64,000 nucleotides of DNA from contig CAWKLF010000008.1 in assembly GCA_963850425.1 (NCBI GenBank), positions 154,421-218,420 of the forward strand, given 5' to 3'. The notes beneath the pieces were generated by a model. That model had not been told where the DNA came from, did not search any database, and was given only the letters and a program-made list of their open reading frames with translations. Position numbers and translations under genes: made by a program. The number at the start of each line of letters is the position of its first letter. The stretch's first letter is position 1. This document shows positions 12,342-53,480 of the stretch, piece by piece. This DNA is from an uncultured Acidobacteriota bacterium (lineage in GTDB: Bacteria; Acidobacteriota; Terriglobia; Terriglobales; Acidobacteriaceae).

Positions 12342-12359
12342 AGCGTCCTCTACTGCCCT

Positions 12360-32886: not shown

Positions 32887-34221
32887 CTACTGGCTCGCTT
32901 TCTCGTACCGGCCGGCGCGAGAGAGTGCAGCACTGACCTTCTGCATTTGCGCCGCGAAGCGAGGAGCGTTGTATGCCGATGGATTGTCAACCTGCTGGAA
33001 TAGCCCTTTTATCGCTTCTCGCATGTCGGCATCGTTTGCGCCTTTGTTGTTTTGCATGTAGGCAGCGAAGAGCGAGTCGAGCGACATCGCGGCCTGCTCG
33101 GCTGCGCGTTGCCCCTGCACCGAGATCGAATCGCCATCCTGCGCGATTGATTTCATAACCGCGAGAGCGAAAGCTTGATCGTACGATTTCGCATTTAATT
33201 GCTGAGCAAATTGCGCCGCAGTCGCCGCAGCGTGAGTTGCCGTGCTCGCAATTTCCTGAGGACTGCCGTTGCGTGTGCCCAGCAAGGCCGCCAACTTCGT
33301 GATGTCCACATCCAACTGCTGAGCCTTATCAGGGCTGCTCCGTTTTGCAATGTGCCGGAAAACCACGTACCGCGATTGGTTCCAGGCGGCAACTCCTGGT
33401 TCCCTTCCGCCATAACCAACTTCTTGCCTCCAGCTGTCTTCTGGCTTGGTGAGGCTGTGGTGGCAAGCGAAGCAATCGAGTTCACCGTACTCCGGCCAGG
33501 AAGAACTTCCCGCCCGGCGCGCCAGTCGCTCCAATCCTTTTTGTAGTTGCACGGCTTCCCCGACGCCCCACACTTGCACGCCGCGCCATGCGTTATCGGT
33601 GGGCTCTTTCCAGTGCAGCGGCATGACCGAGCTGAACAGGTTGAGTTCGAAAGTTAAGTCCGGATGCCCGGCCGCGATCATCTCATGGTCGACAAACTTC
33701 TCCGAAGTTCCAAGGTGACAGGCCAGACACCGCTCGCTGCGCTTGATCAGGTCGCGCGTATCATACATTCCAAGCTGCACCGACTTTTCATGCGGCCAGT
33801 CCTTGGTGGTATGCGGCCCCAGCCATCCGGAAGCAGGACCGTGACAGCTTTCACAACTCACTCCATCGACGAGTTCAAAGGTTTCAGCGCGCTGCTCGCT
33901 CGGCACCGACAAGGCATGGCACGCCAGGCACTTCTGCGACTGATCCGGGCGTCCAATGTTAAGAATCTTCCCGATACGCAACGAGACTGCATTGGAGAGC
34001 ACCTGGTAAGCGCGCGCATGCTTGTCCTGTCCCGCCCAGATGCTGTACTCGTTTTGCGATACGTGGGTGATTTGCCGGGGCTGGATACTGCCATGACAGC
34101 TGCTGCTGGCGCATCCACCGGGCCCGTTGTATTTCCCGGTCGGTGCGTTTTGCGCAGAGGCACACGAGAGCAGTACCAGACACACGACTGCGTGCCATGC
34201 CGGGTTGGCCTTGTTGCGCAT
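32887..34221 (-). CDS. Periplasmic multiheme cytochrome c (4 CXXCH + 1 CX4CH)
   Basis: 444 aa. Signal peptide [15 protein letters not shown]. Motifs CASSSCH, CLACH, CESCH, CLACH, CFACH. C-terminal helical domain. Its stop lies 2 nt before the GH63 start. Confidence 0.8.
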
Positions 34222-34448
34222 TGCGTCTGCGTAGGTAGAGTCCGCGCGCGATTTTGCAGCCGGATGGCCTTGCTTATACCTATTCCAGAAGCTGGAATCA
34301 ATTGACAGTTTGGTACGTCGGCAGCACGACCGTACAGGGACCTCTAGTCATTCGGTGTCCCAAGATCGGCATTCCCGCCGACCATCATTGACGATAAGAT
34401 TTCAGCAATCTTTCCATCGTGATCGAGTCTTAAGGGGACACTAGCGCC

Positions 34449-36122
34449 TTGTTCGACCAACTCAGGGCGATTCAGCAGAAGTTTGGCTACTTGCCGGCTG
34501 ATCAACTCCACCAACTAGCTGCCCGGATCAACGTCCCGGTAAGCCAGATTCATACGGTCGCCAGCTTCTATCCTCATTTCCATCTGACCCCGCCTCCACG
34601 CGCGGAAGTGAAGGTTTGCGCCGACATGACTTGCCACCTCCGCGGCGGCCCGGAACTTAAAGCGGAGCTGGAACAAACCTTCCGAGGCAGCAGCCCCGAC
34701 GACGTTTCCATTCGCGACGTTTCTTGCCTCGGTCGCTGCGACAAAGCCGCCGCTCTCGCAATCAATGATCGGATTTATTGCGGACTGGACGCACGCGAGG
34801 CCGTCGCCATCGCGCGCAATGCAGCAGCCGGCCGTCCGCTTCCGCCCGAACCCCGCGATCGTCCGCAGGTGTCCGTAATCTCCGACCCATACTCTGGCGC
34901 CCCTAGTTACTCCCTGGTGCGACGCTTTGTAGAGACACGCGACTGGAGCAGCACCATCGCCACCCTGAAAGCCAGCGGCCTGCGCGGGATGGGAGGTGCG
35001 GGTTTTCCCACTGGCAACAAGTGGGAGATCGTTCGCAACGCCCCAGGCAAAGCCAAGTACATTGTCTGCAATGCCGACGAGAGCGAACCGGGCACCATCA
35101 AGGACCGGTTCATCATGGAAGCAGTCCCCCACCTGGTGATCGAAGGCATGATCATCGCGGGACTTGTCACCGGAGCACAGCAAGGCATTCTCTACATCCG
35201 GCACGAATACGAAGAACCGCGGGAAGTCCTTCAGCAAGAGATTGACCGCTGTTACCACGCCGGATTGCTCGGGAAAAAAATTCTGGGCTCCGAGTTGACG
35301 TTCGAGCTCGAAATCTTCATCAGTCCCGGCGGGTACATCTGCGGCGAAGAAAGTGCGCTTCTCGAGGCCATCGAAGGCAAGCGATCCGAGCCGCGCAACA
35401 AGCCGCCCTTTCCGGGAACCAATGGCCTTTGGAACCAGCCAACCGTCATCAATAACGTCGAAACATTTACGTTTGCGACTGCCATCCTGGCGCGCGGCGC
35501 CGACTGGTTCAAGGCTCAGGGCAAGAACGGGTCAGCCGGGATGAAATTCGTAGGCATCAGCGGGGACGTCAACTCCCCCGGCGTCTTCGAAGTGCCCATG
35601 GGCACGACGTATTCCGAACTCATTCACGAGAAAGCTGGCGGCATCGAGGGACAACGGAAGTTGCTGGCCTTCGCTCCTTCTGGCCCGTCGTCCGGTTATC
35701 TGCCCGCATCGATGGTGGACCTGCCACTCGACTGGAACGCCGTGGCGGCTGCCGGATCCATGGTGGGCTCGGGCGCCATCGTTGTCTGCGCCGAAGGCCG
35801 TTGCATGCTCGACATGGCGCTCAATGCTGTCCGTTTCTATCGAAACGAATCCTGCGGCAAGTGCGTTCCCTGCCGATTGGGATCGCAGAAGATGGTCGAA
35901 ATGCTAACTGGATGGACCGAAGGCCGATCAGCAAGCACAGATCGCCAGGTTCTCGATGAACTCTCCAGCGCGATGAAGCTGACCTCCATCTGCGGCCTGG
36001 GTCAGGTTGTTCCCGTTCCCATAGCATCCGTCCTAAAGCATTTCCCGGAAGTGGTCGAGGAACACATCACTGGCCGCCGCTGTCCCGCCGGTGTTTGCTT
36101 CACGAAGCGAGGCTCGGCATGA
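34449..36122 (+). CDS. NuoE-NuoF fusion: NADH-oxidising FMN/Fe-S flavoprotein
   Basis: 557 aa, TTG start. The N-terminus has a thioredoxin-like 2Fe-2S fold (CADMTCH ... SCLGRCD). This is followed by GLRGMGGAGFPTGNKW (FMN), YIVCNADESEPGT (NADH), YICGEESALLEAIEGKR, and ESCGKCVPCRLG ... SICGLG (N3-type 4Fe-4S). Confidence 0.85.
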   Translation: MFDQLRAIQQKFGYLPADQLHQLAARINVPVSQIHTVASFYPHFHLTPPPRAEVKVCADMTCHLRGGPELKAELEQTFRGSSPDDVSIRDVSCLGRCDKAAALAINDRIYCGLDAREAVAIARNAAAGRPLPPEPRDRPQVSVISDPYSGAPSYSLVRRFVETRDWSSTIATLKASGLRGMGGAGFPTGNKWEIVRNAPGKAKYIVCNADESEPGTIKDRFIMEAVPHLVIEGMIIAGLVTGAQQGILYIRHEYEEPREVLQQEIDRCYHAGLLGKKILGSELTFELEIFISPGGYICGEESALLEAIEGKRSEPRNKPPFPGTNGLWNQPTVINNVETFTFATAILARGADWFKAQGKNGSAGMKFVGISGDVNSPGVFEVPMGTTYSELIHEKAGGIEGQRKLLAFAPSGPSSGYLPASMVDLPLDWNAVAAAGSMVGSGAIVVCAEGRCMLDMALNAVRFYRNESCGKCVPCRLGSQKMVEMLTGWTEGRSASTDRQVLDELSSAMKLTSICGLGQVVPVPIASVLKHFPEVVEEHITGRRCPAGVCFTKRGSA

Positions 36123-38281
36123 GTACGAAGCCGGGCGCTGAGATCCAGTTGACGATCGACGGAACCAGCGTCTCGGTCCCGACGGGCACAACCATTTTCG
36201 ATGCCGCCCGCTTGAATGGAATTCCAATTCCCACTCTTTGCCACCAGCAGAACGAAAATCCGGTCGGAGTTTGCAGAGTTTGCGTGGTCGATATCGGCCA
36301 GCGTGTCTATGCGGCGTCCTGCATCCGGCAGGCTGAGCCGGGCATGAACGTAAAGACATGCTCCGATCCGGTGAAAGCGGCGCGCCACACGCTCATCGAA
36401 CTGTTGATGTCGGATCATCCCGCGCCCTGCGCTCGCCAGCAACACTCCGGCGACTGTGAACTGGAACGGCTCTCGGCAGCTACCGGGATCAGCGAGGTTC
36501 GCTTCCCAAAACGCTCCACTCCACGCGGAAAGGACGATTCCTCCGCGGTCATTGCCGTCGATCACGAATCGTGCATCCTTTGCGATCGCTGTGTGCGCGG
36601 CTGCGACGACATCCGCCACAACTGGGTGCTGGCGCGGCGCGGCAAGGGATATCAGGCAGGCATCGCCTTCGACACCAATCTACCGATGGCCGAATCGTCC
36701 TGTGTGTCGTGCGGGGAGTGCATGGTCTCGTGCCCCACCGGCGCGCTTACCAACAAGCGCGTCGTCGGAACCCAATTGGGCGAAGGCGAGGTTCTCGACC
36801 CCACGGAACTTCTCGGCCTGCCGATCTTCCAGAACGTATCTGGAACCTTCCTCGAACTCAATCAGAAGGCTGTAGTCAAGCGCCACTACCGGGCCGGAGA
36901 GATTATCTGTCGTGAAGGCGACTTCGGCTCAACCGCTTTCTACATCCTCGAAGGTAAGGCGGAGGTTTTTCTCGCAAGTCCCATGGCGCATGTAGAGACC
37001 AATGGCACCAGCCAGGGATTCTTCAGAAAGCTGAAGAGCATGCTCAGCACCCGTGGACAACACCGCCGCAGCGAAGAATCGGATCGGCCCTTTATCCCCA
37101 TCGATGCGTCCGTTGACCTTCCCTACGACCGGCCGATCGCCGACCTGAATCCTGGGGACCTGTTCGGCGAGATGACCTGCATGAGCTATTACCCGCGCTC
37201 GGCAACCGTGCGGGCCAAGACCGATTGCGTGATGCTCGAGATGCTGCGCAACGTCCTCGACATCCTGCAGCGGAACAAGACATTCCGGGCGCAGTTGGAA
37301 CGGAACTACCGGGCGCGCGCTCTTGATTCCCATTTGCGCAGCGTGCCCATCTTCTCGTCGCTCACCAAGGACTTCATCGATCACCTTCGCGACCGCGTCG
37401 AACTCCTGCGCTTCAGTCCCGGTCAGGTCATCTGCCGGCAAGGGGACGTGGCCGACAGCTTTTATCTCGTGCGCATCGGCTTCGTCAAAGTGTCCGAAGA
37501 TCGTCCCGGAGGCGAGTTGATCCTCGCTTACCTCGCGCGCGGAGGATATTTCGGTGAAATCGCCCTGCTCAGCGGAAGCCCAAGGACCGCCACCTGCACG
37601 GCACTCGACCACGTGGAAGTCGTACGCATCGCGCGTGATGACTTTGAATTGATGCTCGAGCGCTTCCCGGAAGTGCGCGCCAAACTTGAGGCCATTGCAC
37701 AGGAACGCGCCGCGGAGAATCGCCGCCGCACAGCTCAGTTGCAGACGCTGCCAGTTGATCAATTTCTCGCCAACGGCTTGATGGAAGCCCAGAGCCTGCT
37801 GGTTCTCGACCTGGAGCGCTGCACGCGCTGCGATCAGTGCGTACGCGCTTGCGCCGATGCCCACGACGGCGTCAGCCGCCTGGTGCGCGAAGGTCTACGC
37901 TTCGACAAATACCTGGTCGCAACTTCCTGCCGCCAGTGCCGCGACCCGCTATGCATGGTCGGCTGCCCCGTCGGTTCCATCCGTCGCCGGAATTCGCTCG
38001 AGGTCATCATCGAAGACTGGTGCATCGGGTGTGGATTGTGCGCGAACAATTGCCCGTACGGCAACATTAACCTCCACCCGTTCCCGGTGGAACTCGACGA
38101 TCCCGCGCATCCGGGACGGAAAATTGCCAGCACACGCGTCAAAGCAACCTCGTGCGATCTTTGTCACGATCACGCCGAGCCCAGCTGCGTTTATGCGTGC
38201 CCGCATGATGCGGCACATCGCGTGAACCCGCCCGAGTTCTTCGCCGGACTCCTCAAGCTGCCCAGCGGAGCAAAGGGCTAG
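36119..38281 (+). CDS. Multidomain Fe-S protein: NuoG-N-terminal-like 2Fe-2S + His-ligated 4Fe-4S + 2x[4Fe-4S], two cNMP-binding domains, then a C-terminal DmsB/NrfC/HybA-like polyferredoxin
   Basis: Start placed at ATG 36119 (ATGA overlap with the upstream stop). The N-terminus has IQLTIDGTSVSVPTGTTIFDAARLNGIPIPTLCH..CRVC..C, SDHPAPC..GDC, and CILCDRCVRGC / CVSCGECMVSCP. The cNMP phosphate-binding cassettes are FGEMTCMSYYPRSATVRA and FGEIALLSGSPRTATCTA. The C-terminus has CTRCDQCVRAC, CRQCRDPLCMVGCP, CIGCGLCANNCP and CDLC..PSCVYACP. Confidence 0.8.
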   Translation: MSTKPGAEIQLTIDGTSVSVPTGTTIFDAARLNGIPIPTLCHQQNENPVGVCRVCVVDIGQRVYAASCIRQAEPGMNVKTCSDPVKAARHTLIELLMSDHPAPCARQQHSGDCELERLSAATGISEVRFPKRSTPRGKDDSSAVIAVDHESCILCDRCVRGCDDIRHNWVLARRGKGYQAGIAFDTNLPMAESSCVSCGECMVSCPTGALTNKRVVGTQLGEGEVLDPTELLGLPIFQNVSGTFLELNQKAVVKRHYRAGEIICREGDFGSTAFYILEGKAEVFLASPMAHVETNGTSQGFFRKLKSMLSTRGQHRRSEESDRPFIPIDASVDLPYDRPIADLNPGDLFGEMTCMSYYPRSATVRAKTDCVMLEMLRNVLDILQRNKTFRAQLERNYRARALDSHLRSVPIFSSLTKDFIDHLRDRVELLRFSPGQVICRQGDVADSFYLVRIGFVKVSEDRPGGELILAYLARGGYFGEIALLSGSPRTATCTALDHVEVVRIARDDFELMLERFPEVRAKLEAIAQERAAENRRRTAQLQTLPVDQFLANGLMEAQSLLVLDLERCTRCDQCVRACADAHDGVSRLVREGLRFDKYLVATSCRQCRDPLCMVGCPVGSIRRRNSLEVIIEDWCIGCGLCANNCPYGNINLHPFPVELDDPAHPGRKIASTRVKATSCDLCHDHAEPSCVYACPHDAAHRVNPPEFFAGLLKLPSGAKG

Positions 38282-38286
38282 TCCCC

Positions 38287-39207
38287 ATGCTTATCGATCA
38301 CACCCACCGCAAATGGCTCGTCGGCAGCATGGCAGTCTTGGTTGTGGCGGGAGCGACTTACATTCCCTACAGCCTTCGCTCGCCACAAGGACCGCGCGGT
38401 AGCAGTGTTCCGGGAATCGTTTACGGAAGCGTCGGATTTGCGTTCATGCTGTTCGCAGGCCTCTTGGGGCTGCGCAAGAAATTTCCCGTCTGGCGCATCG
38501 GACGGGCCAAGGCGTGGATGCGCGGCCATCTCTGGCTGGGCTTTATAAGTTTTCCGCTCATTCTCCTGCATGGCGGCTTCCACTTCGGCGGCCCACTGAC
38601 GCGTGTCCTGATGTGGCTGTTCGTTTTTGTCTTTGCCAGCGGAATTCTGGGAGCCGCCCTGCAACACTTCCTTCCGCGCCTTCACACAGCCCAACTTCCA
38701 ATGGAAACCATCTACGAGCAGATCGACCGGGTTCGCGGCCAGCTTATGGAGGAAGCCGAACGAGTGGTGAAGGAATCGTGCGCAGCTCTCGAAGGCGACG
38801 TCCCCAGCGCAACCGAACGGCAACGGGCCGCGGCGGCATCGGCGGGAGCCAGCTGGGATGTAACGGTTGCCTCCGGCATGCAAGTGGACGAGCAAGCGAG
38901 TGCTGAACTGCGCCGCGTGCTTTCCGCTGAAATCTGTCCTTACCTGAGTAAGGCAGGAGCGCGAACTGCCCGGATCGCAGATCCGCAAGTTGCTAGCGCA
39001 CTATTCCGTCAGCTGCGCGTGTTGCTGCCGGCGACCTTGCATCCGAATATGGACGATCTGGAAAACATCTGCGAAGAAAAACGCCAGCTCGATAAGCAGA
39101 ACCGGCTTCACAAGATTTTGCATGGCTGGCTGCTGGTTCACGTGCCCATCTCCTACGCATTAATTCTGCTCGGAGCATGGCACGCAATCGTGGCTCTGAG
39201 ATTCTAG
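38287..39207 (+). CDS. Integral membrane protein, 5 predicted TM helices with conserved-looking histidines (possible b-heme/quinone subunit); family not recognised
   Basis: 306 aa. Helices around WLVGSMAVLVVAG, GIVYGSVGFAFMLFAGLL, HLWLGFISFPLILLHGGFHF, VLMWLFVFVFASGILGAALQHF and LHGWLLVHVPISYALILLGAWHAIVAL. A ~150-aa soluble loop precedes the last helix. Spacing is 5 nt after the upstream gene and 10 nt before the next. Confidence 0.55.
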   Translation: MLIDHTHRKWLVGSMAVLVVAGATYIPYSLRSPQGPRGSSVPGIVYGSVGFAFMLFAGLLGLRKKFPVWRIGRAKAWMRGHLWLGFISFPLILLHGGFHFGGPLTRVLMWLFVFVFASGILGAALQHFLPRLHTAQLPMETIYEQIDRVRGQLMEEAERVVKESCAALEGDVPSATERQRAAAASAGASWDVTVASGMQVDEQASAELRRVLSAEICPYLSKAGARTARIADPQVASALFRQLRVLLPATLHPNMDDLENICEEKRQLDKQNRLHKILHGWLLVHVPISYALILLGAWHAIVALRF

Positions 39208-39217
39208 GCCGACGGCA

Positions 39218-40583
39218 ATGCTGCGAAGAATACGCACCACCAAAAAACTCGCGCGGCGCATCGATCTCCAGTACTTCAAGCACTCTCATCCGCTCCGACG
39301 ATGGCGATTCTGGCTCTCGGTAGCCGTACCGGTGATCGCAATCGGCTGGCTCCTTACCCAGCGCGCGCAAGGCGGCCAGAAAGCATATTCCAGCGGCCCG
39401 CTCTCGGCTTCCCACGCCGTTTTCACTCAGCAGTGCAGCCTCTGTCACGTGACGCGCAGCTGGAGCATTCTTCAAAGAGGTCACCGACAACGCCTGCCTA
39501 ACTTGCCACGATGGTCCGGTGCACCACGCCAACCAGGTGTTCACGCCTTCCTGCTCATCCTGTCACATCGAACATAAGGGGTCGGCCCGTTTGGCGGTCA
39601 CGTCGACGGCCAGTTGCACCCAATGCCATGCATCCCTTCATACCCGCGACGGTCAGCCACACTTTGCCGTGGCGATCTCCGGTTTCAATCGCACTCACCC
39701 TGAATTCTCTCCGACAACGAAGCACATGACCGACCCCGGCCAGGTGCGCCTCAATCACTACCTGCACATGAAGCCGGAGCTCGTCGGCCCGAACAGCCAG
39801 CGAGTTCAAATGGCTTGCGAGGACTGCCATCGTTTGACCGGAGTCCAGGATCACTTTCCGTATGCGGGTGAGTTGGCTCAAACCACGACCTCGAATGACC
39901 CGAGCATCGCAAAGCTCTCGCTCATTTCCGCCACAATGTCCCCAGTGAGGTTTGCGAACCATTGCGCGGGCTGCCACACGCTCCAGTTCGACGCCCGGTT
40001 TGCAGGGCAGCAAGTGCCGCACGAAAAGCCTGAATTCATCCATGCCTTTCTCGTAAAGCGCTTTCAGGAATACATCGCGGCGAATCCTGCGGCAGTTCAT
40101 CAGATCGAGCCGCCGGGCCGGGGAGTTCCACGGCGTGACCGGCCCGTCCGAATCGCGCGAAATGGTGAGGAATGGGTACAGTTCCGCGTGGATGATGCCG
40201 AATGGCTCCTTTGGACTAAGACCTGCAAGCAATGCCACGCCATCAACTCTGCCGGCAGCGCTTTGCCCGAGATCGTTCCGTCACAAATTCGTTCCCGTTG
40301 GCTGGAGCATGCGACTTTCGATCATCATGCGCACCGCATGATGTCCTGCACCTCCTGTCATGGAAAAGCAATCGAGAGCCATGACACAGCGGATCTCTTA
40401 CTACCCGAAATTGAGACCTGCCGAGAGTGCCACCGTGATCAGGCTGGATCGAAAGAGGTTGCGGAAGGGCGCTGCTTTGAATGTCACCAATATCATGACT
40501 GGAGCAAGGCCCGCAGAACGAAAGGCCGTTTCAGCATTCCTGAGCTCCGCGGAACTGCGCAATTGCAACCTCCGCGGCGTTAG
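39218..40583 (+). pseudogene. Membrane-anchored decaheme cytochrome c, split by an apparent +1 frameshift at ~39450-39470
   Basis: ORF 39218..39577 gives a TM anchor (WRFWLSVAVPVIAIGWLL) plus CSLCH and then degenerates. Frame 0 is open from 39453 and reads RAAGAFFKEVTDNACLTCHDGPVHHANQ..., with no start codon before the GTG at 39519, so the CLTCH motif would be orphaned. ORF 39519..40583 adds CSSCH, CTQCH, CEDCH, CAGCH, CKQCH, CTSCH, CRECH and CFECH. The total is 10 CXXCH. Confidence 0.75.
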
Positions 40584-40608: not shown

Positions 40609-43600
40609 TTATTCGCTGGCCTTTTGAGCGCCTGGCGCAGCTGGCGGGTCATCTGTGACCGTGAAAAGATGACCATCGCGTAGATACATTCTCTCCATCT
40701 CTGCCTGATTGAATGGACGCGAGCCGCGCCGGCCAAAAACCGCCAACTGGTTCCCACTCTCATCCACCGCCCGATCGCGATCAATGCCCCTGGAAACTGC
40801 CAGGGCCGCGTCGCGTGTCCTGTAACCAGCAATCCACTTCGGCGTGGGCCTGGGACTGAACCCGCTGAATGCGGGGTTGTCCACCGGAGAGAACAATTGC
40901 ACGACCTGCAGCCCGTTCTTGCCATCGGCGACGTACGCGAACAAGCTCGAACTGACCATACCCAGCTTCACATCGTTCGAGTCCTGCAACCGGCCGCCAG
41001 CGTTAAATATTTGATCCAGCTTTGGTGACTCCGGATGTTCCACGTCAACAATCGCGAGTCCCTTTCGTCCTGCCGCGACGTAAGCATACGTGCGTGCCAC
41101 GTAAAGATTCCGCGCATCGTCGATCGCCACCTGCCCTCCGGGTAGTGGCTTCGGCTGATCAAGAGCGGTCACATCGAGCACCTTTAACCCCTCCCGATCC
41201 ACCACAAACGCATAACGGAATTGAATGGCGATTCCCCGAGGTTCCAGGAGCGCAGGGGGTCCAATCTCTGCAGTGACCTTTGGCTGCAGCGGGTTGTCGA
41301 TATCGACGACGACCAACCCGCGATCACACAAAACGTACGCATAGGTTCCGGCAATCGCGATACGACGCGCGCCGTTCAGGATTCCGTTCGGATTGAATGC
41401 CAGTGCTCTCTTAAGGAAGTTGTTCGCTGGATTCCCATCGAGCAGTGTTCCCACTCCCGGACTCTTGCTCTTAAGGTCTGGATTGCCGACGATCACCAGA
41501 CCCTCATATTTGTCCGCCACGTAAAGAAACCCGTACATCAAGTGAATCGTCTGCTCCTCGTTTTCCTTTCGATGAGACCGCAGCGGGTCCACTCCTAAAG
41601 TGGTCGGACTTGCGACAGCCATCGCATATTTGGTTGGCAGATAAAACCGCTGTCCCAGTGGCGACACGGGAGCCGTCACAACCCGTTCTGAGATGTCCTT
41701 GTTGTCGACATTGGCGATATCAAAGACCCGCAAGCCGCCCTTGCCCATCGCGGCATACAAGTATTCGCCGCGCGCTTGGACGTCCAGAACTTCAGACCCC
41801 GCGTGGTGGTAGGCCTCCCTCAATTTGCCGTCGCCCTCGAGGTGCTTCTTATAGTTCTCGGGATAAGCGATCTTCTGAAAATCGCTGCCCAACACCGCGG
41901 GCGGTTCCTCGTGCTCGGTCACGGCAATTGTTTCAAATCCACTCTTCCCGTCCGCAACGAACACATAACGCCCCATGAAATTCATGAAGCCCGTGCCCTG
42001 CAACAACAGTTGGGCCATCCATGCATTATTGTCGTGGGCTCGCGAGACGTGGCAGTCCGTGCAGCCCTTGGTTTCTCTACCGCGAACGGTGTGCGGCACA
42101 AACGTTGAGAAAGCCTGCCCGCTGAACCCCTCCGCTGAGATCGTTTGCTGCTGGGAGTAGAGCCAGTCGCGATCGCTATTCTGCGAACTCACGACAACCG
42201 CACATGCGGATCGAACCGGCGCAACGCGATGCCCGGTGACCGTCCCGTCGATTCCAAGCGTGTAGATGTCGTCGCGCAATACCTGGAAGTTGTACGAGGT
42301 CCAGTTGCGCGTCGTCAGGCCCTCGTTGTGCAGCATGGGCGTCCGCTGGTTCGCGGTCATCGACAGATGACATCCGTAGCAAGTGGGTGCCCAGGAGGAG
42401 TGACACGCGTAGCACGTCATACGGCTGTTCGCGTGCGCCAGTTCCGACTGATCTGTGGGAACTTCTCCCCACGACACTCCATCCTGCTGGATGGTCTTCG
42501 CCAGCCGCGACTTCTCGCTGTAGTGTTGGTTGCCGGGCGTGATCGTATCGACAACCTGCACGACCTCCCATTCCGTATGCTCGTCGAGCATCGACCGCTG
42601 GTAGAGATGATCTTCTTTCCAGTAGAAACGGCGCTCTTTCCAGGGCGTTCGCAATGCAGCCAGGTTCGTTCCGTGCTCGGGAGCCGCTATGCCCGAAGTG
42701 ATCAACGTCGACTTCTGCTGCACGGTGCCATGGCAATCCACACAATCGATCTCAACCGCGTTCCGCGTCTCCCCATAAAGCTTGCCGTTGCCATGGCTGT
42801 CCTGTTCAAAATGGCAATCGATGCAGTGCATGCCCTTTTCAAGATGAATGTCCTTGAGATGGACAGCCTTGTTAAATTTCTCCGCATCATTGAACGCGAC
42901 CGGCTTGTCTTCGCTGTCCAGCAGCGTACCCTTGCGATCGTGCTTGAAGGCCGCGCGGAAAATCCAGCCGTGGCTGTGGAAGTCGGCAAACTGTGTGTGC
43001 TCGAGTTTCTTGTTGAACTCGGGCGTCCCGGTTTTTTCTAGAAAATTCACGTCGGACCACAGTCCGCGCACCGCCGACCCCTCAGGATTGCGAGCTTCAA
43101 TCCGGCTGCGTTCCTCTGCCTTCGGGTGCCTTTGTTGCATGGGCCACATGTACTTCCCGTCCATTTCGTTGTCCCACCACGTATAACCGAAGTACGTCGC
43201 TACCATGTTCGTGCCCGGATGGATGTGACAAACCATGCACTGGCTGGACGGAATGGACCGTGTGAACTGGTGGCGAATCGGATGGCCAGATTCGCCGTGC
43301 GGAATGGTAGGATCCTGCGTCGCGCTCTGCCCCAGGTTGCCGTACTCCGCGGATGAGCCGGAATGATCCTTGGATCGATCGTTCGCATAGACCACGTGGC
43401 ATCCGCTGCAGCCGCTGGCGCGATAGTCCCCTGGATGATCGTTCGTCCCGGGAAACGACAGCAGTGGATCGAGCAGTCGAGTCTTCTGCAGCCCGAGAAA
43501 TACTGGATCTGTCCGCAACTCGGTACCGAATCCGCGCTCGCTGAGCTTGATTTCCGGCTTCCCCGGATCTTCTTCTAAATCAGGATTCCCGATCTCCGCG

Positions 43601-44355
43601 CGCTTCCGTCCGCCGCGTTCAAACACGCGCAACACATTCCCCGGTTGTGAAACCTCCCATCGTTGCAGCGGTTCGAGGAAGGGCAAAACACCTTTTTTCT
43701 CGATCTCTTCAGCCGTAGGAGCTGGAAACGTCATAAGCCGCCGCGGTCGCCCATCTTTCCCGTAGCTCTCGCCGAATTGTGGAGACTTCAATGGAAACGC
43801 ACCGTTGTTGTAAAGCGCTGCTCCCCACAGCATGGCGCCATGAGTCATCATGCTGGTCTGCACCTTGCGGACCTCCGCCGAATGACACCCGCTAAGCCCG
43901 CAAGTCTTTTCTGCAACGCGAAGATCGCCAGGGTTCACAAAGCGCACATAGTCCCAATCCTCCCGTAGCCACTCGGTGTAGGCGCGCTCGGGATTAGCCG
44001 GCGATGAAAGCAAAATCCTGGGCTGAGGATGGGCTCGCTTCTTGTCTCGTTCGTACTCGGCCGACTTGGGACTCCCTCCCTGGCTCACATGAATCTCAGC
44101 ATTGCCTCCGTGACAATCGATGCACCCCAGTCGCACCGTTCCCGTCGAATGCATAGTCGCGCTGTCGGTTGAGGTATGGCAGGTCACACATCCGCTGGAT
44201 TTGCGATCCGCATCCGCCTGCGACTGCTGCAACAGAATGTTCTCGGGAGGAGGCTGCGATTGAGCGTGTCCCAAAGAGCACGCCGTAGCCAGGGCGCAAT
44301 GCAACAAGGCGAGAACAATTATTTTCAAAGTTCGCGAAGCGGCGCTCAGGGACAC
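40609..44355 (-). CDS. Large secreted multiheme cytochrome c (9 CXXCH + 1 CX4CH) fused to a C-terminal LVIVD-repeat beta-propeller
   Basis: The ORF track runs to 44805, but that overlaps the upstream gene (stop at 44555). I favour the GTG at 44355, giving [31 protein letters not shown]|QS as a signal peptide. The start is uncertain (alternatives 44499 and 44550). Heme motifs are CVTCH, CIDCH, CGLSGCH, CSGCH, CMVCH, CIDCH, CVDCH, CYACH, CYGCH and CTDCH. The last ~480 aa carry repeats such as [47 protein letters not shown] and NGLQVVQL. Confidence 0.75.
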
Positions 44356-44554
44356 ATTTTGGTTCAAGCACTTCTTCTCGCCCTTTGCGCATTCCTTAGC
44401 TTCCTTTGCCGTCAAGAGCTTTTTGTCCACGCCCGATGCGGAACCATTGAACGTCGCAGCCCCAGCGGACGAACTCCAGCCATTTACTCCGCCGAACATG
44501 ACGCGGAACGATATTCTTGCCGCGGTCCTCTTGATCAGTGCGTGGACCATATTC

Positions 44555-46772
44555 CTAAAATTGAAATCGAACATTCCCGAACAACGAGAACAGCGTCTGA
44601 CCGTTGTAGATTTGCTTAAGGCCTTCGGCTGGAACCAGTGCAGATGCCCCGCCTCGCACAACAATGTTCTCCGACAGAGGTGGCCGGTATTCAACCCCGA
44701 CTCCACAATCTGTTCCAATGCCGTGCTCGATCGGCCTCTGGAACAGCACCAATTCCAACGGTTCTGTCCGATCAAAACGCAAGTAGCTTGTGTTGGCGAA
44801 GGCACGCAACTTGGGCGTGAGATTAAAGTCAGCTCCCAGATTGAACACCATCACCCCAGGGTTGACGAAGTTGGCTTGCCCCTCTTCTTTATTGGAGCGC
44901 AAGTTCGGCAACAAACTTATGGGTGTGGTCAGCGCCAGGCCGGTCCCCGTCAACCGAATACCTTCGCTGTTCCAGAAGCTGAAGTCAGAGCCGCCGAAAT
45001 GCGTGTCGTCAACAATGGAGTCGAACGCGTGAGCCGTACCGTCAGTCCGGGCCGCGCCTGACCGGTTGCTCGAGTCGCCCGACGCATAGAAAAACGAGGC
45101 GCGGTATCGTGCCCAATCTTTGTCGATCGAAAGCTCGACGGCTCCCATGCGCGCGTTGATATCGACTCGACGACCGGCAAGCGTGTTGAAGTCGTCATGA
45201 CCCAGCGCCTGGTAGAACGCATGGCTGACATTCAGACGTCCGATGTGGCCGTTGCTGGCCCATCCCACGTAATAGGCTCGAATCGGGTGTGTACGAATTG
45301 TCCCGTTCACGACTGCCCCAATCGGAGCGGGCCGCACCAGGAAGCCGTTGTCGTCAAAGTGCACACCACCATCGTCGCGGTTGTAGTGGAAACTGAACTC
45401 GGTCGTGTACCCCTTGGCCAGGAAATCCTGCACGTAAACGTTGGCGACGTAGACTTGCTGATCCCGCTTTTGAAAGGTATTGAGCCCGCTGTTTGTGTTC
45501 TTCTCGAGAAAGTAGAACCACGCCAGGTTGTAAGCAATCCGGTTCGAGCGCAGATTTCCAAAAATACGAATGCCCGGCTGTTCTTCGGAAAATAGAAACC
45601 CACGGAAATCGCTCGTGAATTGCTGAATCCCTGCTCGAATCGAAACAAAATCGTAGTTTGGACTCAGGTCGCGCAACTTTGCTTCGACAAACGCCTCCTG
45701 CACCCCCACATGAGCATCGAAGCGATCCGTTCCCTTGCGCGGATCGATGTTGACGATTCCCCGTTCGCGCGCCTGCAGGAAATTCAAATTGACTTCCGGC
45801 GTAAAGCGAAACCGCAGATCCGCCGGCCGAAAGCTGGTGTCGCCTCGAAACAGGTCGAGCGAGAAACGCAAAGTTTCCGACGCAAGAAGCTTGTTCTCCC
45901 CGCCCAAAAAATCCGCTGCTGCCCGGATTCGCAGTGTCCACTCCGCTCGGTACCGGCAGCCGTCTCAAGTCCACGCCGGTCTGGCTCCTTCCAGTCACAT
46001 TCAGAAACCAGCGCTGCCCGAAAATCGGATAGTCTCCTTTGAGCTTGTTGCGGTTGAAAGGGTCATACCAGCGACCCTTCACATAAGGCGCGTCCGACTG
46101 GGTTTCATAGCGGCGCCACTCGGGCATCGCGACGTCCCAACGGTCGGGAGCCGGTTCAAAGTTCGCAGAGTCGGGCGGAAGGGACTCGGTTGGCTGGAGG
46201 GACGCCGATTTCTCGGGTGCAGGATTTCTAAGGCCTGGATACGCACTCCCTTGGGGTGTCGGGCCAGCGGGTATCCGCGAGCCTCCGGGCACTCCGGAAA
46301 CGCCTTTCGGTGGAGTGGCCGTCGTCCCTAAAGCCTTGATCTTCAACTCCAACACGACCAGACCGGCGGCACTCACTTGCACGCGTTCCACCACCAGAGG
46401 CTCGTATCCCTCGCGCACTGTGCGAAGTTCATACGCATCGAGGGGCACATCCCGCAGGCGAAAAATTCCCTCTGCATCCGTCGTAGTTTCAAAACTTGAT
46501 CCGTTCGATAGTGAACGAATCTTCAGCGCAACGCCGGGAACAGCGCGATCCTCTTCGTCGCGCACCCGCCCTTGCAAGCTGGCCTTCGCCGGAGTGGAGC
46601 GCTCCGGAATGCGACGCGCCGGCGGAAGCTGGGCCGTCGAATAGTCGGGTTGTTGCCCGAGCACAGTGCCCAAGCCTGCCAGGGACACGCATACCATTCG
46701 CAGTGACCACACTCCGATTCGCGCCCCAAGCCTTTGGGGCACACGCCCGCCCATCCGCACTTGTCCCACCAT
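44555..46772 (-). pseudogene. Outer-membrane beta-barrel protein with an N-terminal carboxypeptidase-regulatory-like domain, split by an apparent frameshift at the A6/T6 run 45906-45911
   Basis: ORF 45354..46772 is meaningful up to ...NPGSSGFFGRGEQ and then becomes Arg-rich nonsense. It includes a signal peptide and a QGRVRDEEDRAVPGVALKIRSLSNGSSFETTTDAEGIFRLRDVP CarbopepD_reg-like domain. ORF 44555..45907 continues in the other frame (GGENKLLASETLRFSLDLF...) as alternating-pattern beta strands ending ...LFGNVRFQF, with the C-terminal Phe typical of OMPs. Confidence 0.7.
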
Positions 46773-48468: not shown

Positions 48469-50826
48469 TTACTTCGACTTCATGACGTGTACGCCGTCCC
48501 AGCCAGTTTCCGGCGCATGTTCACGGAAGTCGAGCGCTCGCTGCAGGAAGATCTGTGTTGGCCCATCGTCAGGAAACGATGTCAGCAACGTTCCGAACTG
48601 AAGAACTGCCTCATTCCAATCCTGTTCACGATAGGCCGCCATTGCGCTGGCGAACTGTTCCAGCAGCACACTGTATTTCGCGTGATTTTCAGCGCCATCC
48701 AGTAGTTCGTAGATCGCCACTGGCTGCAACTTCCCCTTCACCCGAATTCGATCGAGATCTCTGCAGACAAACTGCTGTGCGACCTGGCGGTAAGTCCCTT
48801 CGCTGATCACAACGCGGACCCGGTACTGCTTGGTCATCCCTTCCAAACGCGACGCCAGGTTCACGTTGTCGCCCATGACCGTCCACGCCAGTCGCTTATC
48901 GGACCCCATGTTGCCCACGTTAACCGGACCCGTATTGAGCCCGATGCCAATCGAAATCGGTTTCCTACCTTCAGCTTTCCACTTTGCATTCAGCTTTTCA
49001 AGGCTGCGCGACATCTCCAGCGCGCAACTGCAGGCGCGGGTAGAGTGGTCGTCCTGGGGATAAGGCGAGCCCCAGAAAGCCATGATGGCATCGCCAATGT
49101 ACTTGTCGAGCGTACCCAGATTTCGGAAAAGGACATCAGTCATCTCGCCGAGATATTCATTGAGCAAGTGAACCAGTTCATCGGCACTCAAGCCTTCGGA
49201 AAGCGCCGTGAAGTCGCGAATATCGCTGAACATCACAGTCAATTCTTTCGTCTCACCACCCGGACGAATGTACCTTTGCGGATCCTTCTCGATCAGCCCG
49301 ATCACGCCCGGCGACAGATATTGTGAGAATGTCTTCCTGATCTTGCGCTTCTCGCGCTCCTCGAAAATCATGCGGAAGCTCGTGATGGCTGCGTAGTTCG
49401 CCACCAGCGTCGTAGCCGGTATCGCAAAACTCAGCCAGCTTCCCCAGCGCACGAAGCTGAAATAGACGAACCAGCCAAACGCCGCAAGAACGAGGATCAA
49501 AGCCACCGTCGAGTACAACGGCTTAACCTTCCCGAACCAGATTCCCATGCCAGTGCCGAACAGCAGGATGAACGCGATGTCGATCATCTCCTCGCGCGCG
49601 CCACGAGTCAGGAAGCTCCGTCCGGCTTCCCCGCTGTGCAGCAGGTTGTCGATAATGTTGGCATGCACCTCGACCCCCATGTACGCGTCGCCATTCTGGA
49701 AGGGCGTAATCCGAAGATCGCCAATCGCCTTGGCGGTCGCCCCAAACAACACGATCTTGTTCTTGAACGCATCAGGGGGAGTAGAGCGCGAGATCACATC
49801 CCACATGGAGTAGTGCGGATAGCTTCCATAAGGGCCGACATAGTTGATAATTGCCGTCCCATCGCGCGAGGGACGCAGGGGATGCGAGCCAAATTGAATC
49901 CGCTCGAGCCCGTTTTCGGCGATATAGGCTGCGATCTCCTGATCGGGAATTTGCTCAAACTCACGCAATACCTGCATGGCGAGCGAGGGAAAGAAGTCCT
50001 GATCGCGATACCGCATAATCAAAAGCGCGTGCCGCAAGGTTCCATCCGGATCAGGATTAATATCGATGAAGCCATAGGATACAGCTGCTTCGGCAAGCTT
50101 CGTGATGTTCGCTTCGGCGCCCGCCGCCACTGTGCCGCCGCTATTCACCCAGGCCTGCGCCAGATCAAAGTCCTTGCCATCCTTCGATTTGACCTTCAGT
50201 ACCTGGGGGAATGACTTCGCCCACACAATGTTGAAGTACTCTTCCTCGAGTTTGGGATTGGAGTTCTTGGCGCGCTCCGCATCAAGAAACAGATGCCCTA
50301 AAACCACATTGCCAGAAGCCTTGAGTGAAGCGGCAAATGCGCCGTCCTGGTCGCTCTCGATCTTCAGGCGCTTGATCTCCTGATCAACACTGGAAGGAGC
50401 GGATGCGCCGAGGTTCGCCTGCAGCTTGTTTAGCGCCTGAGTTGCAGAATTGCTTTCCGGAGTCGGGAACGTGGCATCGAAGGCTACCACGCGCGCACCT
50501 TCTGCGCTGAGTCGCTTTACCAACTCGGCATACGCACGCCGAGGAAGCGGAAACGATCCCTCGTGCATCAGCGTCTTCTCATCGATGCCGACGATGACAA
50601 TTCGTTCGTCAGGCTTGCGCGATCCGCGCAGTTCGAACCGGGTGTCCAGCAGGCTTTGTTCTACGTTCTGAAGAAAGAGAAAGCCGGCACCACGATTTCC
50701 GCCGATGCCGGCAAATGCAAACAGGAGCAATCCGCCCGCCGTAACCAGTAGTGCCAGAGCCACGTCAACCTGGCGAGTCGATATCCGGCTCAACCACTGG
50801 GACCAGCGCTGCGAATTTGGCGTCAT
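48469..50826 (-). CDS. CHASE2-domain membrane sensor fused to a class III adenylate/guanylate cyclase, with a C-terminal helical-repeat tail
   Basis: 785 aa. N-terminal TM helix plus a periplasmic CHASE2 region (IVIVGIDEKTL...), three TM helices, then a cyclase core (TVMFSDIRDFTALSE ... KYIGDAIMAFWG ... GLNTGPVNVGNMGS ... WTVMGDNVNLASRLE). Confidence 0.85.
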   Translation of the reverse strand: MTPNSQRWSQWLSRISTRQVDVALALLVTAGGLLLFAFAGIGGNRGAGFLFLQNVEQSLLDTRFELRGSRKPDERIVIVGIDEKTLMHEGSFPLPRRAYAELVKRLSAEGARVVAFDATFPTPESNSATQALNKLQANLGASAPSSVDQEIKRLKIESDQDGAFAASLKASGNVVLGHLFLDAERAKNSNPKLEEEYFNIVWAKSFPQVLKVKSKDGKDFDLAQAWVNSGGTVAAGAEANITKLAEAAVSYGFIDINPDPDGTLRHALLIMRYRDQDFFPSLAMQVLREFEQIPDQEIAAYIAENGLERIQFGSHPLRPSRDGTAIINYVGPYGSYPHYSMWDVISRSTPPDAFKNKIVLFGATAKAIGDLRITPFQNGDAYMGVEVHANIIDNLLHSGEAGRSFLTRGAREEMIDIAFILLFGTGMGIWFGKVKPLYSTVALILVLAAFGWFVYFSFVRWGSWLSFAIPATTLVANYAAITSFRMIFEEREKRKIRKTFSQYLSPGVIGLIEKDPQRYIRPGGETKELTVMFSDIRDFTALSEGLSADELVHLLNEYLGEMTDVLFRNLGTLDKYIGDAIMAFWGSPYPQDDHSTRACSCALEMSRSLEKLNAKWKAEGRKPISIGIGLNTGPVNVGNMGSDKRLAWTVMGDNVNLASRLEGMTKQYRVRVVISEGTYRQVAQQFVCRDLDRIRVKGKLQPVAIYELLDGAENHAKYSVLLEQFASAMAAYREQDWNEAVLQFGTLLTSFPDDGPTQIFLQRALDFREHAPETGWDGVHVMKSK

Positions 50827-51935: not shown

Positions 51936-53480
51936 ATGAGACTCTTCCGCCAACGACGCCGGTTGCTGCTTGCACTCTGTGCAATATTGCTGCCCTGTTT
52001 AGGTATGATTCTTGTATCGTGCAGTGGAAGCGGGTCTTCAGCCACCAGTCCACTCCCGCCGTCGCCTGCGGTTCCACTTAGCGCCACCGAAGTGGACACC
52101 ATAGTCCAGAATGCGGTTGTATCCGTCAACGTACCGCTGGTCGTCGCGGTCTCCGACCGAAGCGGCATCGTGCTGGCAGTTTTTCAGACACCCGGCGCGC
52201 CCGCCACGGCGATCGGAAACTTCGGAGCAGTTGTCGACAGCAACGAGCTCGCAGTCGCCCTCGCACGAACGGCCGCGCTTTTCAGCAACGACCAAGCCCC
52301 CCTTTCGAGCCGTACTGTCCGCTTCATCAGTGGCATCCATTTTCCGCCCGGCGTGTCGTTCGCTCCCAACGCCGATTTGTTTGGCATTGAGAATACCAAT
52401 CGCGGCTGCCCGTTGAATGCCGCATTCAATGCCGGAAAAACCGTCAATCCCGCGCGTTCCATCAACGGCGCGAACCTGGGACTCGGGGTAATCACCGGCA
52501 AGGCTGACGTTATGGACAGCGATCCCACGGCCGTCAATCCAGGCGGTGTTCCTCTTTTCAAAAATGGACACGTGGTCGGTGGAATCGGAGTGGTGAGCAG
52601 TTCTACGAGCGTATCCGAGTTCGCCGCGTTCTCGGGAGCCGCCCACACGGGCTTCTTACCGAACGCCGCACAGCTTCCCCCTCCCGGAGTTGTCGTGATC
52701 GGCGGAATTTCGCTACCGTTTGTAAACCAGACAACTTTGCCAGCAGGAGTTTCTGCCGGAGTTGCCGGGGGCACGTACGTGGCGGGTCCAATCGCTGGGT
52801 CGCTTCCGCCCGAGGGCGATCTTGTCGGTCCGAACGCAGGTGCGGGCGGACTGACTCAGGCAGATGTAACTTCGATCGTCAATCAGGCAGTTGCCACGGC
52901 GGAGATAACACGGGCGGTCATTCGCCTGCCTTCGGCTTCGCGTTCACGCATGACCATCGCCGTTGCAGATCTCGACGGTACAATTCTCGCCTTGCGTCGC
53001 ATGCCCGACGCCACCGTTTTCAGCATCGATGTCGCAGTCGCCAAGGCGCGCAACGTCATTTACTTCAGCAGCACTGGCATCGCGGATATGCCGGGCGTTC
53101 CCGCACAGACGGCCGTCACCAATCGCACGATTGGTTTCGGAGCGCAGCCCTTGTTCCCGCCCGGAATCGACGGATCAAATCCCGGACCCTTCTTCACTTT
53201 GTACACACAGGATTTCTCGAACCCCTGCACTCAGGGTTCGCAACCTTCCAATCCAAATCAGAATGGCGTTGTATTTTTCCCGGGAAGTCTGCCGCTTTAC
53301 AAGAACGGCGTTCTCGTCGGAGGTCTCGGCGTGAGCGGCGACGGTGTTGATCAAGATGACTATGTGACCAATGCCGGAGCTCAGGGCTTTGATGCCCCCG
53401 ACAATATCCGCGCAGATCAAGTCATGATCGACAATGTCCGTTTGCCCTATCTGAAGTTCCCTCGCAACCCGCTAAATTAG
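51936..53480 (+). CDS. Lipoprotein with two tandem GlcG/DUF336 (HbpS-like) domains
   Basis: 514 aa. Lipobox ILVSC. Domain 1 has VVAVSDRSGIVLAVF ... GGVPLFKNGHVVGGIGV. Domain 2 has IAVADLDGTILALRRMPDA ... AVAKARNV ... GSLPLYKNGVLVGGLGVSGDGVDQDD. Confidence 0.7.
   Translation: MRLFRQRRRLLLALCAILLPCLGMILVSCSGSGSSATSPLPPSPAVPLSATEVDTIVQNAVVSVNVPLVVAVSDRSGIVLAVFQTPGAPATAIGNFGAVVDSNELAVALARTAALFSNDQAPLSSRTVRFISGIHFPPGVSFAPNADLFGIENTNRGCPLNAAFNAGKTVNPARSINGANLGLGVITGKADVMDSDPTAVNPGGVPLFKNGHVVGGIGVVSSSTSVSEFAAFSGAAHTGFLPNAAQLPPPGVVVIGGISLPFVNQTTLPAGVSAGVAGGTYVAGPIAGSLPPEGDLVGPNAGAGGLTQADVTSIVNQAVATAEITRAVIRLPSASRSRMTIAVADLDGTILALRRMPDATVFSIDVAVAKARNVIYFSSTGIADMPGVPAQTAVTNRTIGFGAQPLFPPGIDGSNPGPFFTLYTQDFSNPCTQGSQPSNPNQNGVVFFPGSLPLYKNGVLVGGLGVSGDGVDQDDYVTNAGAQGFDAPDNIRADQVMIDNVRLPYLKFPRNPLN

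Follow-up and report, generated by a model that had tools for sequence, protein, structure and literature searches.

To our knowledge, all characterised bacterial routes to periplasmic or extracellular multihaem cytochromes begin at the quinone pool. The entry points CbcL, ImcH and CymA of Geobacter and Shewanella, in which a membrane multihaem cytochrome c feeds periplasmic cytochromes and, in CbcL, is joined to a di-haem cytochrome b domain, are quinol oxidases without NADH dehydrogenase, polyferredoxin or cyclic nucleotide monophosphate (cNMP)-binding domains. The Tmc and Hmc complexes of sulfate reducers, and also DsrMKJOP, lack a catalytic metal site and combine an Fe-S protein in the cytoplasm, a cytochrome b in the membrane and a multihaem cytochrome c in the periplasm. 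Pyridine-nucleotide- or ferredoxin-linked membrane complexes are coupled to multihaem cytochromes c in the rnf-linked cytochromes of Desulfovibrio and in Rnf with the multihaem MmcA of Methanosarcina (bioRxiv 10.1101/2022.07.20.500911). Here, we analyse a four-gene operon in a 64,000-nucleotide stretch of DNA from an uncultured bacterium of the Acidobacteriaceae (assembly GCA_963850425.1, contig CAWKLF010000008.1, positions 154,421 to 218,420), the whole of which we call the window. This quartet is a widespread, previously undescribed relative of known transmembrane redox complexes and, judged from domain content, ligand conservation, predicted topology and synteny, it on balance probably encodes a membrane-bound, quinone-independent NAD(P)H:multihaem-cytochrome-c oxidoreductase. 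The initial annotation of this DNA, made from the sequence alone, knew of no characterised complex of this composition, and we likewise found no published description of the quartet in full-text literature searches. The four genes, with the modules of gene 2, are as follows.

34449-36122, forward strand: gene 1, a NuoE-NuoF fusion of 557 amino acids (aa) with a TTG start, a predicted NAD(P)H-oxidising flavoprotein with flavin mononucleotide (FMN), one [2Fe-2S] and one [4Fe-4S] cluster.
36119-38281, forward strand: gene 2, an Fe-S protein of 720 aa from the ATG at 36119 (frame open from 36095 to 38281).
36137-36760, forward strand: HoxU/NuoG-N-like module of gene 2, aa 7-214 (Pfam Fer2_4; NCBIfam HoxU-like).
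About 36836-37708, forward strand: two cNMP-binding (CNB) domains of gene 2, aa ~240-530 (PF00027, 140 bits).
37784-38224, forward strand: four-cluster polyferredoxin of gene 2, aa 556-702 (Pfam Fer4 families, four Cys clusters).
38287-39207, forward strand: gene 3, a putative di-haem cytochrome b of 306 aa with five transmembrane (TM) helices and no Pfam model.
39218-40583, forward strand: gene 4, a predicted membrane-anchored periplasmic decahaem cytochrome c from the ATG at 39218, with a 1-nucleotide insertion at 39458.

The open reading frame (ORF) calls give a 4-nucleotide overlap between genes 1 and 2, a 5-nucleotide gap between genes 2 and 3 and a 10-nucleotide gap between genes 3 and 4, exactly the packing first reported. 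A promoter and terminator scan of the locus returned 0 promoters, and terminator-like sites fell below the shuffle expectation.

Homologues of genes 2 and 3 are abundant in soil metagenomes and in metagenome-assembled genomes (MAGs) of Terriglobia, and the relatives of gene 3 form 2267 clusters at 50% identity. A collection holding one genome per species contained at least 587 stretches matching gene 3, the best 80 of which belong to Acidobacteriota, mostly Terriglobia/Terriglobales, with one contig labelled Limnocylindrales. We compared 80 genome loci with 80 metagenome loci, the latter from a scan seeded with distant relatives and having 41-53% gene 3 identity, and found that the order and orientation of genes 1 to 4 were kept in all loci with enough flank, except for a variant represented by L089 and L090. 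The short intergenic gaps also persist, with medians of ~4-9 nucleotides across loci, so that translational coupling is kept, and the quartet neighbourhood is conserved down to 37-50% gene 3 identity. Such conservation of the order and orientation of four genes in two collections is far more than chance would give, and neighbourhood conservation was the test that the initial annotation had set for its own proposal.

Gene 1 matches the Pfam models 2Fe-2S_thioredx, Complex1_51K, SLBB and NADH_4Fe-4S, all over cut-off, with 90.1 bits for the NuoE thioredoxin-like [2Fe-2S] domain (PF01257, cut-off 24.8), 141.8 bits for the 51-kDa FMN/NADH domain (PF01512, cut-off 31.2) and 90.1 bits for the C-terminal [4Fe-4S], or N3, domain (PF10589, cut-off 23.5). 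Conservation of ligands in this and the other genes was counted in alignments of single-ORF orthologues extracted from the fetched loci (100-157 sequences, 34-60% minimum identity). Cys57/62/93/97 and Cys469/472/475/515 are conserved in 100 of 100 orthologues, bearing out the description of gene 1 as a NuoE-NuoF fusion with intact motifs. The complex I NuoF equivalog TIGR01959 scores 437.7 bits, under its cut-off of 558.65, and no nuo genes flank gene 1. Among solved structures, gene 1 is closest to HydB of HydABC hydrogenases (E 3e-117) and also to HoxF, and its residues 2-538 align with the fused NuoE-NuoF subunit of the NAD-dependent formate dehydrogenase (FDH) of M. extorquens (7e5z_B). 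On this sequence evidence we class gene 1 as a paralogue of the HoxF/FdsB/HydB kind and not as an orthologue of complex I NuoF. The protein ends at a CPAGVC motif that aligns with CPAGVC of HydB, without the extra C-terminal two-[4Fe-4S] domain of HydB; C545 and C550 of this motif (nucleotides 36081-36098) are invariant and lie outside the known cluster motifs.

The N-terminal part of gene 2 aligns over ~205 residues with HoxU, HydA, FdsA and NuoG, and scores 165 bits with the NCBIfam HoxU-like model, under the equivalog cut-off. A [2Fe-2S] motif, CX10CX2CX12C (C41/52/55/68), and two ferredoxin motifs of the form CxxCxxCxxxC (C152/155/158/162 and C195/198/201/205) are complete in 114 of 114 orthologues. 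The site of the His-ligated cluster reads H100-x3-C104-x2-Q107-x5-C113, with Gln at the second Cys position in 111/114 orthologues, whereas HydA and FdsA carry Cys there; the model for this cluster, PF10588, reaches 24.7 bits, under its cut-off of 27. The four Cys groups of the C-terminus, C568-578, C604-616, C635-645 and C679-694, are invariant except for C682 (108/114). The [2Fe-2S] cluster, the two [4Fe-4S] clusters and the four-cluster C-terminus of the initial annotation are retained, and the motif of its His-ligated [4Fe-4S] cluster is degenerate. PF13247 (Fer4_11) scores 18.8 bits against a cut-off of 26.2, and the HydN and DmsB equivalogs 62 and 46.5 bits against 260 and 214; judged by these scores, the C-terminus is similar in kind to DmsB/NrfC/HybA/HydN and not a member of the tested HydN and DmsB equivalogs.

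According to Pfam, the middle of gene 2 also contains two cNMP-binding domains, which were absent from the earlier gene list. The first CNB domain holds a large insert, and among gene 2 orthologues the phosphate-binding cassette of CNB-A (FGEM...PRSAT) is invariant and that of CNB-B (FGEI...PRTAT) largely conserved. The first CNB domain also contains two invariant cysteines, C264 (nucleotides 36908-36910) and C354 (nucleotides 37178-37180), of which one belongs to the phosphate-binding cassette. For these two, as for C545 and C550 of gene 1, possible roles are an additional metal site, a redox switch or the ligand that the His cluster lacks.

Genes 1 and 2 thus resemble the HoxEFU diaphorase, FdsB (Fdh1B) with the N-terminus of FdsA, and NuoEFG, in having a fused NuoE-NuoF with FMN, [2Fe-2S] and [4Fe-4S] and a HoxU/HydA/FdsA/NuoG-like partner. 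They differ from those systems in that no hydrogenase, molybdopterin or quinone module follows in this operon, in scoring below the NuoF and HoxU equivalog cut-offs, in the Gln of the His-cluster motif, and in the fusion of the gene 2 module to CNB domains and a polyferredoxin.

Gene 3 matches no Pfam or NCBIfam model. Its AlphaFold2 model (mean predicted local distance difference test, pLDDT, 89.8) has five helices, at residues 5-31, 41-65, 74-96, 103-136 and 249-305, compatible with membrane spans; a helical domain separates TM4 from TM5. Lys and Arg residues cluster at the N-terminus and in the TM2-TM3 loop, a distribution that predicts an N-in topology and hence a cytoplasmic location for the TM4-TM5 domain. 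H81 and H95 on TM3 and H279, H285 and H299 on TM5 are invariant in 157/157 orthologues, down to 40% identity, and H81/H95 and H285/H299 form two H-x13-H pairs, on TM3 (74-96) and TM5 (249-305). Histidines in TM3, TM4 and TM5 of a five-TM protein had been noted originally; the five helices and the TM3 and TM5 histidines hold, and that of TM4, H127, is conserved in 126/157 only. Two H-x13-H pairs are the classic di-haem pattern of the cytochrome b of bc1 and of NOX/ferric reductase domains (FRD), and gene 3 is like FRD in carrying its histidines on TM3 and TM5 with 13 intervening residues.

Members of the gene 3 family give sub-threshold Pfam matches to DUF4405 (17/41, best E 9e-4), Ferric_reduct (13/41, best E 3e-4) and Ni_hydr_CYTB (6/41), and one homologue is named 'ferric reductase-like' by NCBI. 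The NOX/FRD proteins, MsrQ, PepSY-like FoxB and DUF4405 pass electrons from inside to outside across two b haems, for which two helices supply four His ligands, and haem b binding of DUF4405 was shown by experiment (PMC11334425). Given these matches and that work, gene 3 is here taken to represent a new family, in function of the DUF4405/MsrQ/PepSY-like kind; it is probably an unannotated family of di-haem cytochromes b, alike in function to DUF4405 and FRD. By analogy, the function of the operon would be most like that of NOX/ferric reductases and of Fre-MsrQ, in which a cytoplasmic reductant is carried across two b haems. Gene 3 differs from NOX/FRD in having five and not six TM helices, a large cytoplasmic helical insert, Pfam matches that stay below cut-off and no structural match, and the donor here would be an Fe-S chain rather than a fused flavin adenine dinucleotide (FAD)/NADPH domain or Fre. 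Some homologues of gene 3 are long (600-880 aa), with no Pfam domain in their cytoplasmic inserts.

Gene 4 combines a cytoplasmic tail, conserved and positively charged, with one TM helix acting as a predicted N-terminal signal anchor and with ten haem sites. Ten CXXCH motifs are present in 122/123 orthologues together with ten further invariant His, which fits ten bis-His haems and so an electron wire rather than a catalytic site. Pfam returned only generic multihaem models (Cytochrome_C7, 37.9 bits), a profile search against PDB sequences gave a weak resemblance of the C-terminal triheme part to cytochrome c7 (E 0.002), and the AlphaFold2 model of a decahaem orthologue, P0416, was poor (pLDDT 44.4).

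In the window, gene 4 is split. Its starting frame (frame 2, 39218-39577) encodes the membrane anchor and the first CXXCH and then meets a stop, and the other nine CXXCH are read in frame 0, which stays open between 39453 and 40583. Alignment with the relatives L003 (98-99% identical) and L001 locates a single extra A at 39458, not within a homopolymer; deleting it gives a 454-aa product with ten CXXCH, and the relatives encode intact proteins of 451-454 aa. The single-TM, ten-CXXCH cytochrome of the initial annotation, which had passed over the shift, is accordingly recovered after repair of the frame and not as one ORF. A CarboxypepD_reg-domain gene further along the window (44555-46772, reverse strand) is also split over two frames, with a junction near 45900, and is one 750-aa ORF in the relative L004 (14155-16404); in addition, the nearest relatives are long-read MAG assemblies with split genes of their own. 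Given this second frameshift and these split genes, an insertion or deletion (indel) error of assembly is the likelier cause. We consider it unlikely that the shift is a real mutation that makes gene 4 a recent pseudogene and the operon inactive in this genome only: the extra A does lie outside any homopolymer and the cytochrome is truncated after its first haem motif, but the remainder of gene 4 is, as protein, 99% identical to its intact counterpart in L003 and retains all ten haem sites, and the two frameshifts, together with the split genes of the nearest MAGs, form the pattern of assembly indels. Programmed frameshifting was rejected, as the extra base is missing from the relatives and 123 of 152 orthologues are single full-length ORFs, the remainder being cut by contig ends or split.

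The four products together match the Tmc/Hmc arrangement in part. The resemblance to Hmc/Tmc drawn at the outset stands for the architecture and fails for its components, as the four products contain no match to PF02665 (the NarI/HdrE-type cytochrome b) and none to an HdrD-like subunit with CCG domains. Rnf, which is ion-pumping and flavin-based, has unrelated subunits, and no Rnf or Nqr genes are present here.

More distant relatives of gene 3 lie in operons whose cytoplasmic input differs from that of the window, as listed below.

L164 (205-3507) and L165 (752-4054), from the Phycisphaerae MAG GCA_036505095.1: gene 2 with a HoxU-like N-terminus and gene 3 only, with no adjacent NuoEF or cytochrome c gene.
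L166: CNB-CNB-polyferredoxin without the HoxU part and without NuoEF; decahaem c, c554-like, LVIVD cytochrome and HbpS-like genes.
L168 and L171: CNB-CNB-polyferredoxin without the HoxU part and without NuoEF; decahaem c and c554-like genes, with an LVIVD cytochrome in L168.
L169: CNB-CNB-polyferredoxin without the HoxU part or NuoEF, divergently transcribed; decahaem c and c554-like genes, and a cNMP-binding Ser/Thr kinase (551-2200) next door.
L167: no NuoEF; an NDH-2-like flavoprotein fused to a cNMP domain (12018-13655) at the operon end; decahaem c, c554-like and LVIVD cytochrome genes.
L089 and L090: FHA domains on the cytochrome and on the Fe-S protein (L089 8906-11746 and 14263-16824); decahaem c, HbpS-like and LVIVD cytochrome genes.
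L170, at 37% gene 3 identity: the full NuoEF-containing quartet; decahaem c, c554-like and HbpS-like genes.

The NDH-2-like flavoprotein of L167 carries an NDH2_C domain. Seven variants have a cytochrome, and in each of them this protein contains exactly ten CXXCH and aligns with gene 4 from the cytoplasmic tail onward; the Fe-S partner aligns with gene 2 residues ~223-709, and two CNB domains are present in every gene 2 homologue. As read from these alignments, the conserved core is the cNMP-polyferredoxin, the cytochrome b and the decahaem cytochrome c, and the NuoEF/HoxU-like head is one of several input modules. That the core travels together while the input changes supports the view that the C-terminus of gene 2 is physically coupled to gene 3. 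Second-messenger and phosphorylation control seems to be a trait of the family.

The operon is flanked by further cytochrome genes, and a cyclase gene lies ~8 kb downstream of it.

32887-34221, reverse strand: secreted c554-family cytochrome, divergent from the operon (Pfam Cytochrome_C554; 4 CXXCH and 1 CX4CH; signal-like N-terminus).
40609-44805, reverse strand: multihaem cytochrome with LVIVD beta-propeller repeats, convergent with the operon (1398-aa ORF; 9 CXXCH and 1 CX4CH; LVIVD 90.6 bits).
48469-50826, reverse strand: CHASE2-adenylate/guanylate cyclase (CHASE2 200 bits, Guanylate_cyc 94 bits).

The c554-family gene adjoins the operon in most loci and occurs also in the distant variants, and the LVIVD multihaem gene is kept downstream in most Terriglobia loci and in L166, L167, L168 and L089; their products are candidates for a periplasmic shuttle and a downstream acceptor, respectively. 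The first ~150 residues of the LVIVD ORF look non-coding, and its true start is probably near a signal-like segment. The CHASE2 cyclase is found at the same relative place in L003, the other loci ending before that point, and is a possible source of the nucleotide sensed by gene 2. Large HbpS-like (PF03928) proteins occur near the system in four independent contexts (window 51936-53480, forward strand; L089 11873-14080; L166 16587-16891; L170 581-2119). A perfect palindrome, TTCCAGAAGCTGGAA, lies at 34283-34297, in the 227 bp that separate gene 1 from the divergent c554-like gene; only the three closest relatives, L003-L005, share it with the window, which gives no sign of a conserved operator. 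A ferredoxin-type nitrite/sulfite reductase gene (NIR_SIR; 12360-14063, reverse strand) ~20 kb upstream lies beside histidine biosynthesis genes, an ordinary assimilatory context that is unrelated to the operon. In keeping with the initial annotation, which noted no hydrogenase or molybdopterin catalytic subunit here, Pfam identified no hydrogenase, FDH or molybdopterin gene among the 19 larger ORFs of the window that were scanned, several ORFs of at least 200 aa lying outside the scan, and within that scope the idea that NuoEF serves a nearby hydrogenase or FDH found no support.

We propose that the four products form a complex working as follows. NADH would be oxidised at the FMN of the NuoE-NuoF fusion, and electrons would pass from the [4Fe-4S] cluster of gene 1 to the HoxU-like clusters of gene 2 and on to the four [4Fe-4S] clusters of its C-terminal polyferredoxin, docked on the cytoplasmic face of gene 3. 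Two stacked b haems would take them across the membrane, the cytoplasmic one ligated by H81/H285 and the periplasmic one by H95/H299. From there they would pass to the membrane-anchored gene 4 with its ten bis-His c haems, and on to the pentahaem c554-like protein of the periplasm and the multihaem protein with LVIVD repeats. The pair of CNB domains, which separates the Fe-S modules for input and output in gene 2, would probably gate this wire by cyclic AMP (cAMP) or cyclic GMP (cGMP). Outward flow would run downhill, since electrons would move from NADH (-320 mV) to bis-His haems with the help of the membrane potential; no energy would be conserved, and the complex may act as a regulated valve that discharges NADH to periplasmic or extracellular acceptors, including some too low in potential for the menaquinone route. 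The dissipation of membrane potential by such a reaction fits a regulated valve and would explain the allosteric domains built into the wire.

Several observations weigh against this reading of the operon. The lack of one Cys at the His-ligated cluster site leaves the internal electron path of gene 2 uncertain. Foldseek, run with the gene 3 model on the PDB, retrieved no solved cytochrome b (best E 0.13, the top matches being helical sensor domains), and the gene 3 family profile found nothing meaningful among PDB sequences. Gene 4 is frameshifted in the window. Finally, many relatives are without NuoEF (L164-L169 and L171), and NADH would accordingly be a lineage-specific donor that is not universal for the family; the conduit from NADH through Fe-S clusters and haem b to multihaem c that was first suggested thus agrees with the ligands, the predicted topology and the synteny, with the qualification that its NADH head is not universal. 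To these points is added a possible quinone site in gene 3, the basis of the alternative that survives best.

On that alternative, which we regard as doubtful, gene 3 would be quinone-reactive like NarI, FdnI or the b domain of CbcL, and the complex a non-pumping NADH:menaquinone and/or menaquinol:multihaem cytochrome oxidoreductase. NarHI and FdnHI share with the quartet four [4Fe-4S]-type Cys motifs beside a membrane protein with two His pairs, and it is well established both that a cytoplasmic Fe-S subunit (NarH) is paired there with a 5-TM b subunit (NarI) and that a four-cluster ferredoxin on a di-haem b is the design of these quinone-reactive enzymes. The weak Ni_hydr_CYTB matches of gene 3 family members point the same way, as does the established fact that the entry points to extracellular electron transfer, CymA, ImcH and CbcL, are all quinol oxidases. 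It is because of L167, whose operon ends with an NDH2_C-bearing, NDH-2-like flavoprotein of a type that normally reduces quinone, that this alternative stays alive. However, Pfam and the PDB-sequence profile search detected no significant similarity of gene 3 to the NarI, FdnI or NrfD families, no quinone-binding motif was identified in gene 3, and where NarHI and FdnHI have a quinone site the quartet has, instead or besides, a decahaem cytochrome c, whose invariable presence with a conserved cytoplasmic tail fits a direct wire.

A role in redox sensing, in which the complex would report the redox state of periplasmic cytochromes to cNMP and FHA/kinase signalling and carry only signalling-level currents, is quite improbable. 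The regulatory domains are unusually dense, with two CNB domains in every gene 2 homologue, FHA domains on the Fe-S and cytochrome subunits of L089, a cNMP-binding Ser/Thr kinase adjoining L169, and the CHASE2 cyclase and HbpS-like proteins nearby. Yet at least 20 redox centres and a dedicated NADH dehydrogenase head would be a large investment for a sensor, and no DNA-binding or kinase output domain is fused to the core subunits in the window.

We judge it very unlikely that electrons flow inward, from periplasmic cytochromes to cytoplasmic NAD+ in the manner of Hmc/Tmc, as the initial annotation had offered as a second option. Hmc/Tmc and NarGHI are established examples of inward transfer through the same kind of architecture, and in the present family the periplasmic side (decahaem, c554-like, LVIVD) is constant while the cytoplasmic partner varies. 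Tmc and Hmc, however, deliver electrons to sulfite reduction, whereas the NADH dehydrogenase head here implies outward flow. By established bioenergetics, the NAD+/NADH couple (-320 mV) is usually more reducing than bis-His c haems, and inward electrons would in addition oppose the membrane potential, with no ion-translocating subunit present to pay either cost; a donor near the potential of H2/formate would be needed, and even its span of ~0.1 V is smaller than a normal membrane potential. Flavin-based bifurcation, splitting NADH electrons at the HydB-like flavoprotein between the cytochrome branch and a low-potential acceptor such as ferredoxin, is just as improbable. In its favour, gene 1 and the N-terminus of gene 2 have HydB/HydA of bifurcating hydrogenases and NfnABC as their nearest solved relatives, and the invariant CPAGVC of gene 1 aligns with the HydB motif; but gene 1 lacks the C-terminal two-[4Fe-4S] domain of HydB and has the architecture of the non-bifurcating fused NuoE-NuoF of FDH and of HoxF, and the cluster has no conserved gene for ferredoxin or another second acceptor.

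A direct NADH-fed route to multihaem cytochromes, as the oxidoreductase reading would have it, would be a different bioenergetic solution from entry at the quinone pool, in which no energy is conserved and low-potential acceptors and fast disposal of reductant are gained. The cNMP domains built into the Fe-S wire suggest allosteric control of electron flow. The system is common, mainly in Terriglobia, which are dominant in acidic soils and peat; which electron sinks keep anaerobic CO2 production going in these habitats is an open question (bioRxiv 10.64898/2026.05.27.727921). A 2026 peat preprint describes multihaem clusters of Acidobacteriota as outer-membrane conduits of different composition and leaves their inner-membrane donors open; its cluster EET1 consists of a porin, an NHL propeller and a cytochrome, with NADH unmentioned, and is a different type of cluster from that of the LVIVD cytochrome here.

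Finally, we offer a bolder reading tentatively, as a possibility that falls short of being probable: the complex may be a second-messenger-gated (cAMP/cGMP), quinone-bypassing NADH:multihaem-cytochrome oxidoreductase, the first such respiratory-type complex, that feeds the outer multihaem machinery of Acidobacteriota and whose core is a general donor socket. If this is true, the complex would be the missing inner-membrane feeder of that machinery, and the cNMP-polyferredoxin/cytochrome b/decahaem core would be a socket for NuoEF, NDH-2-like and FHA-regulated donor modules. The membrane potential would be used to push electrons out of the cell, and abundant Terriglobia of soil and peat could reduce humics and crystalline Fe oxides below the potential of menaquinone.

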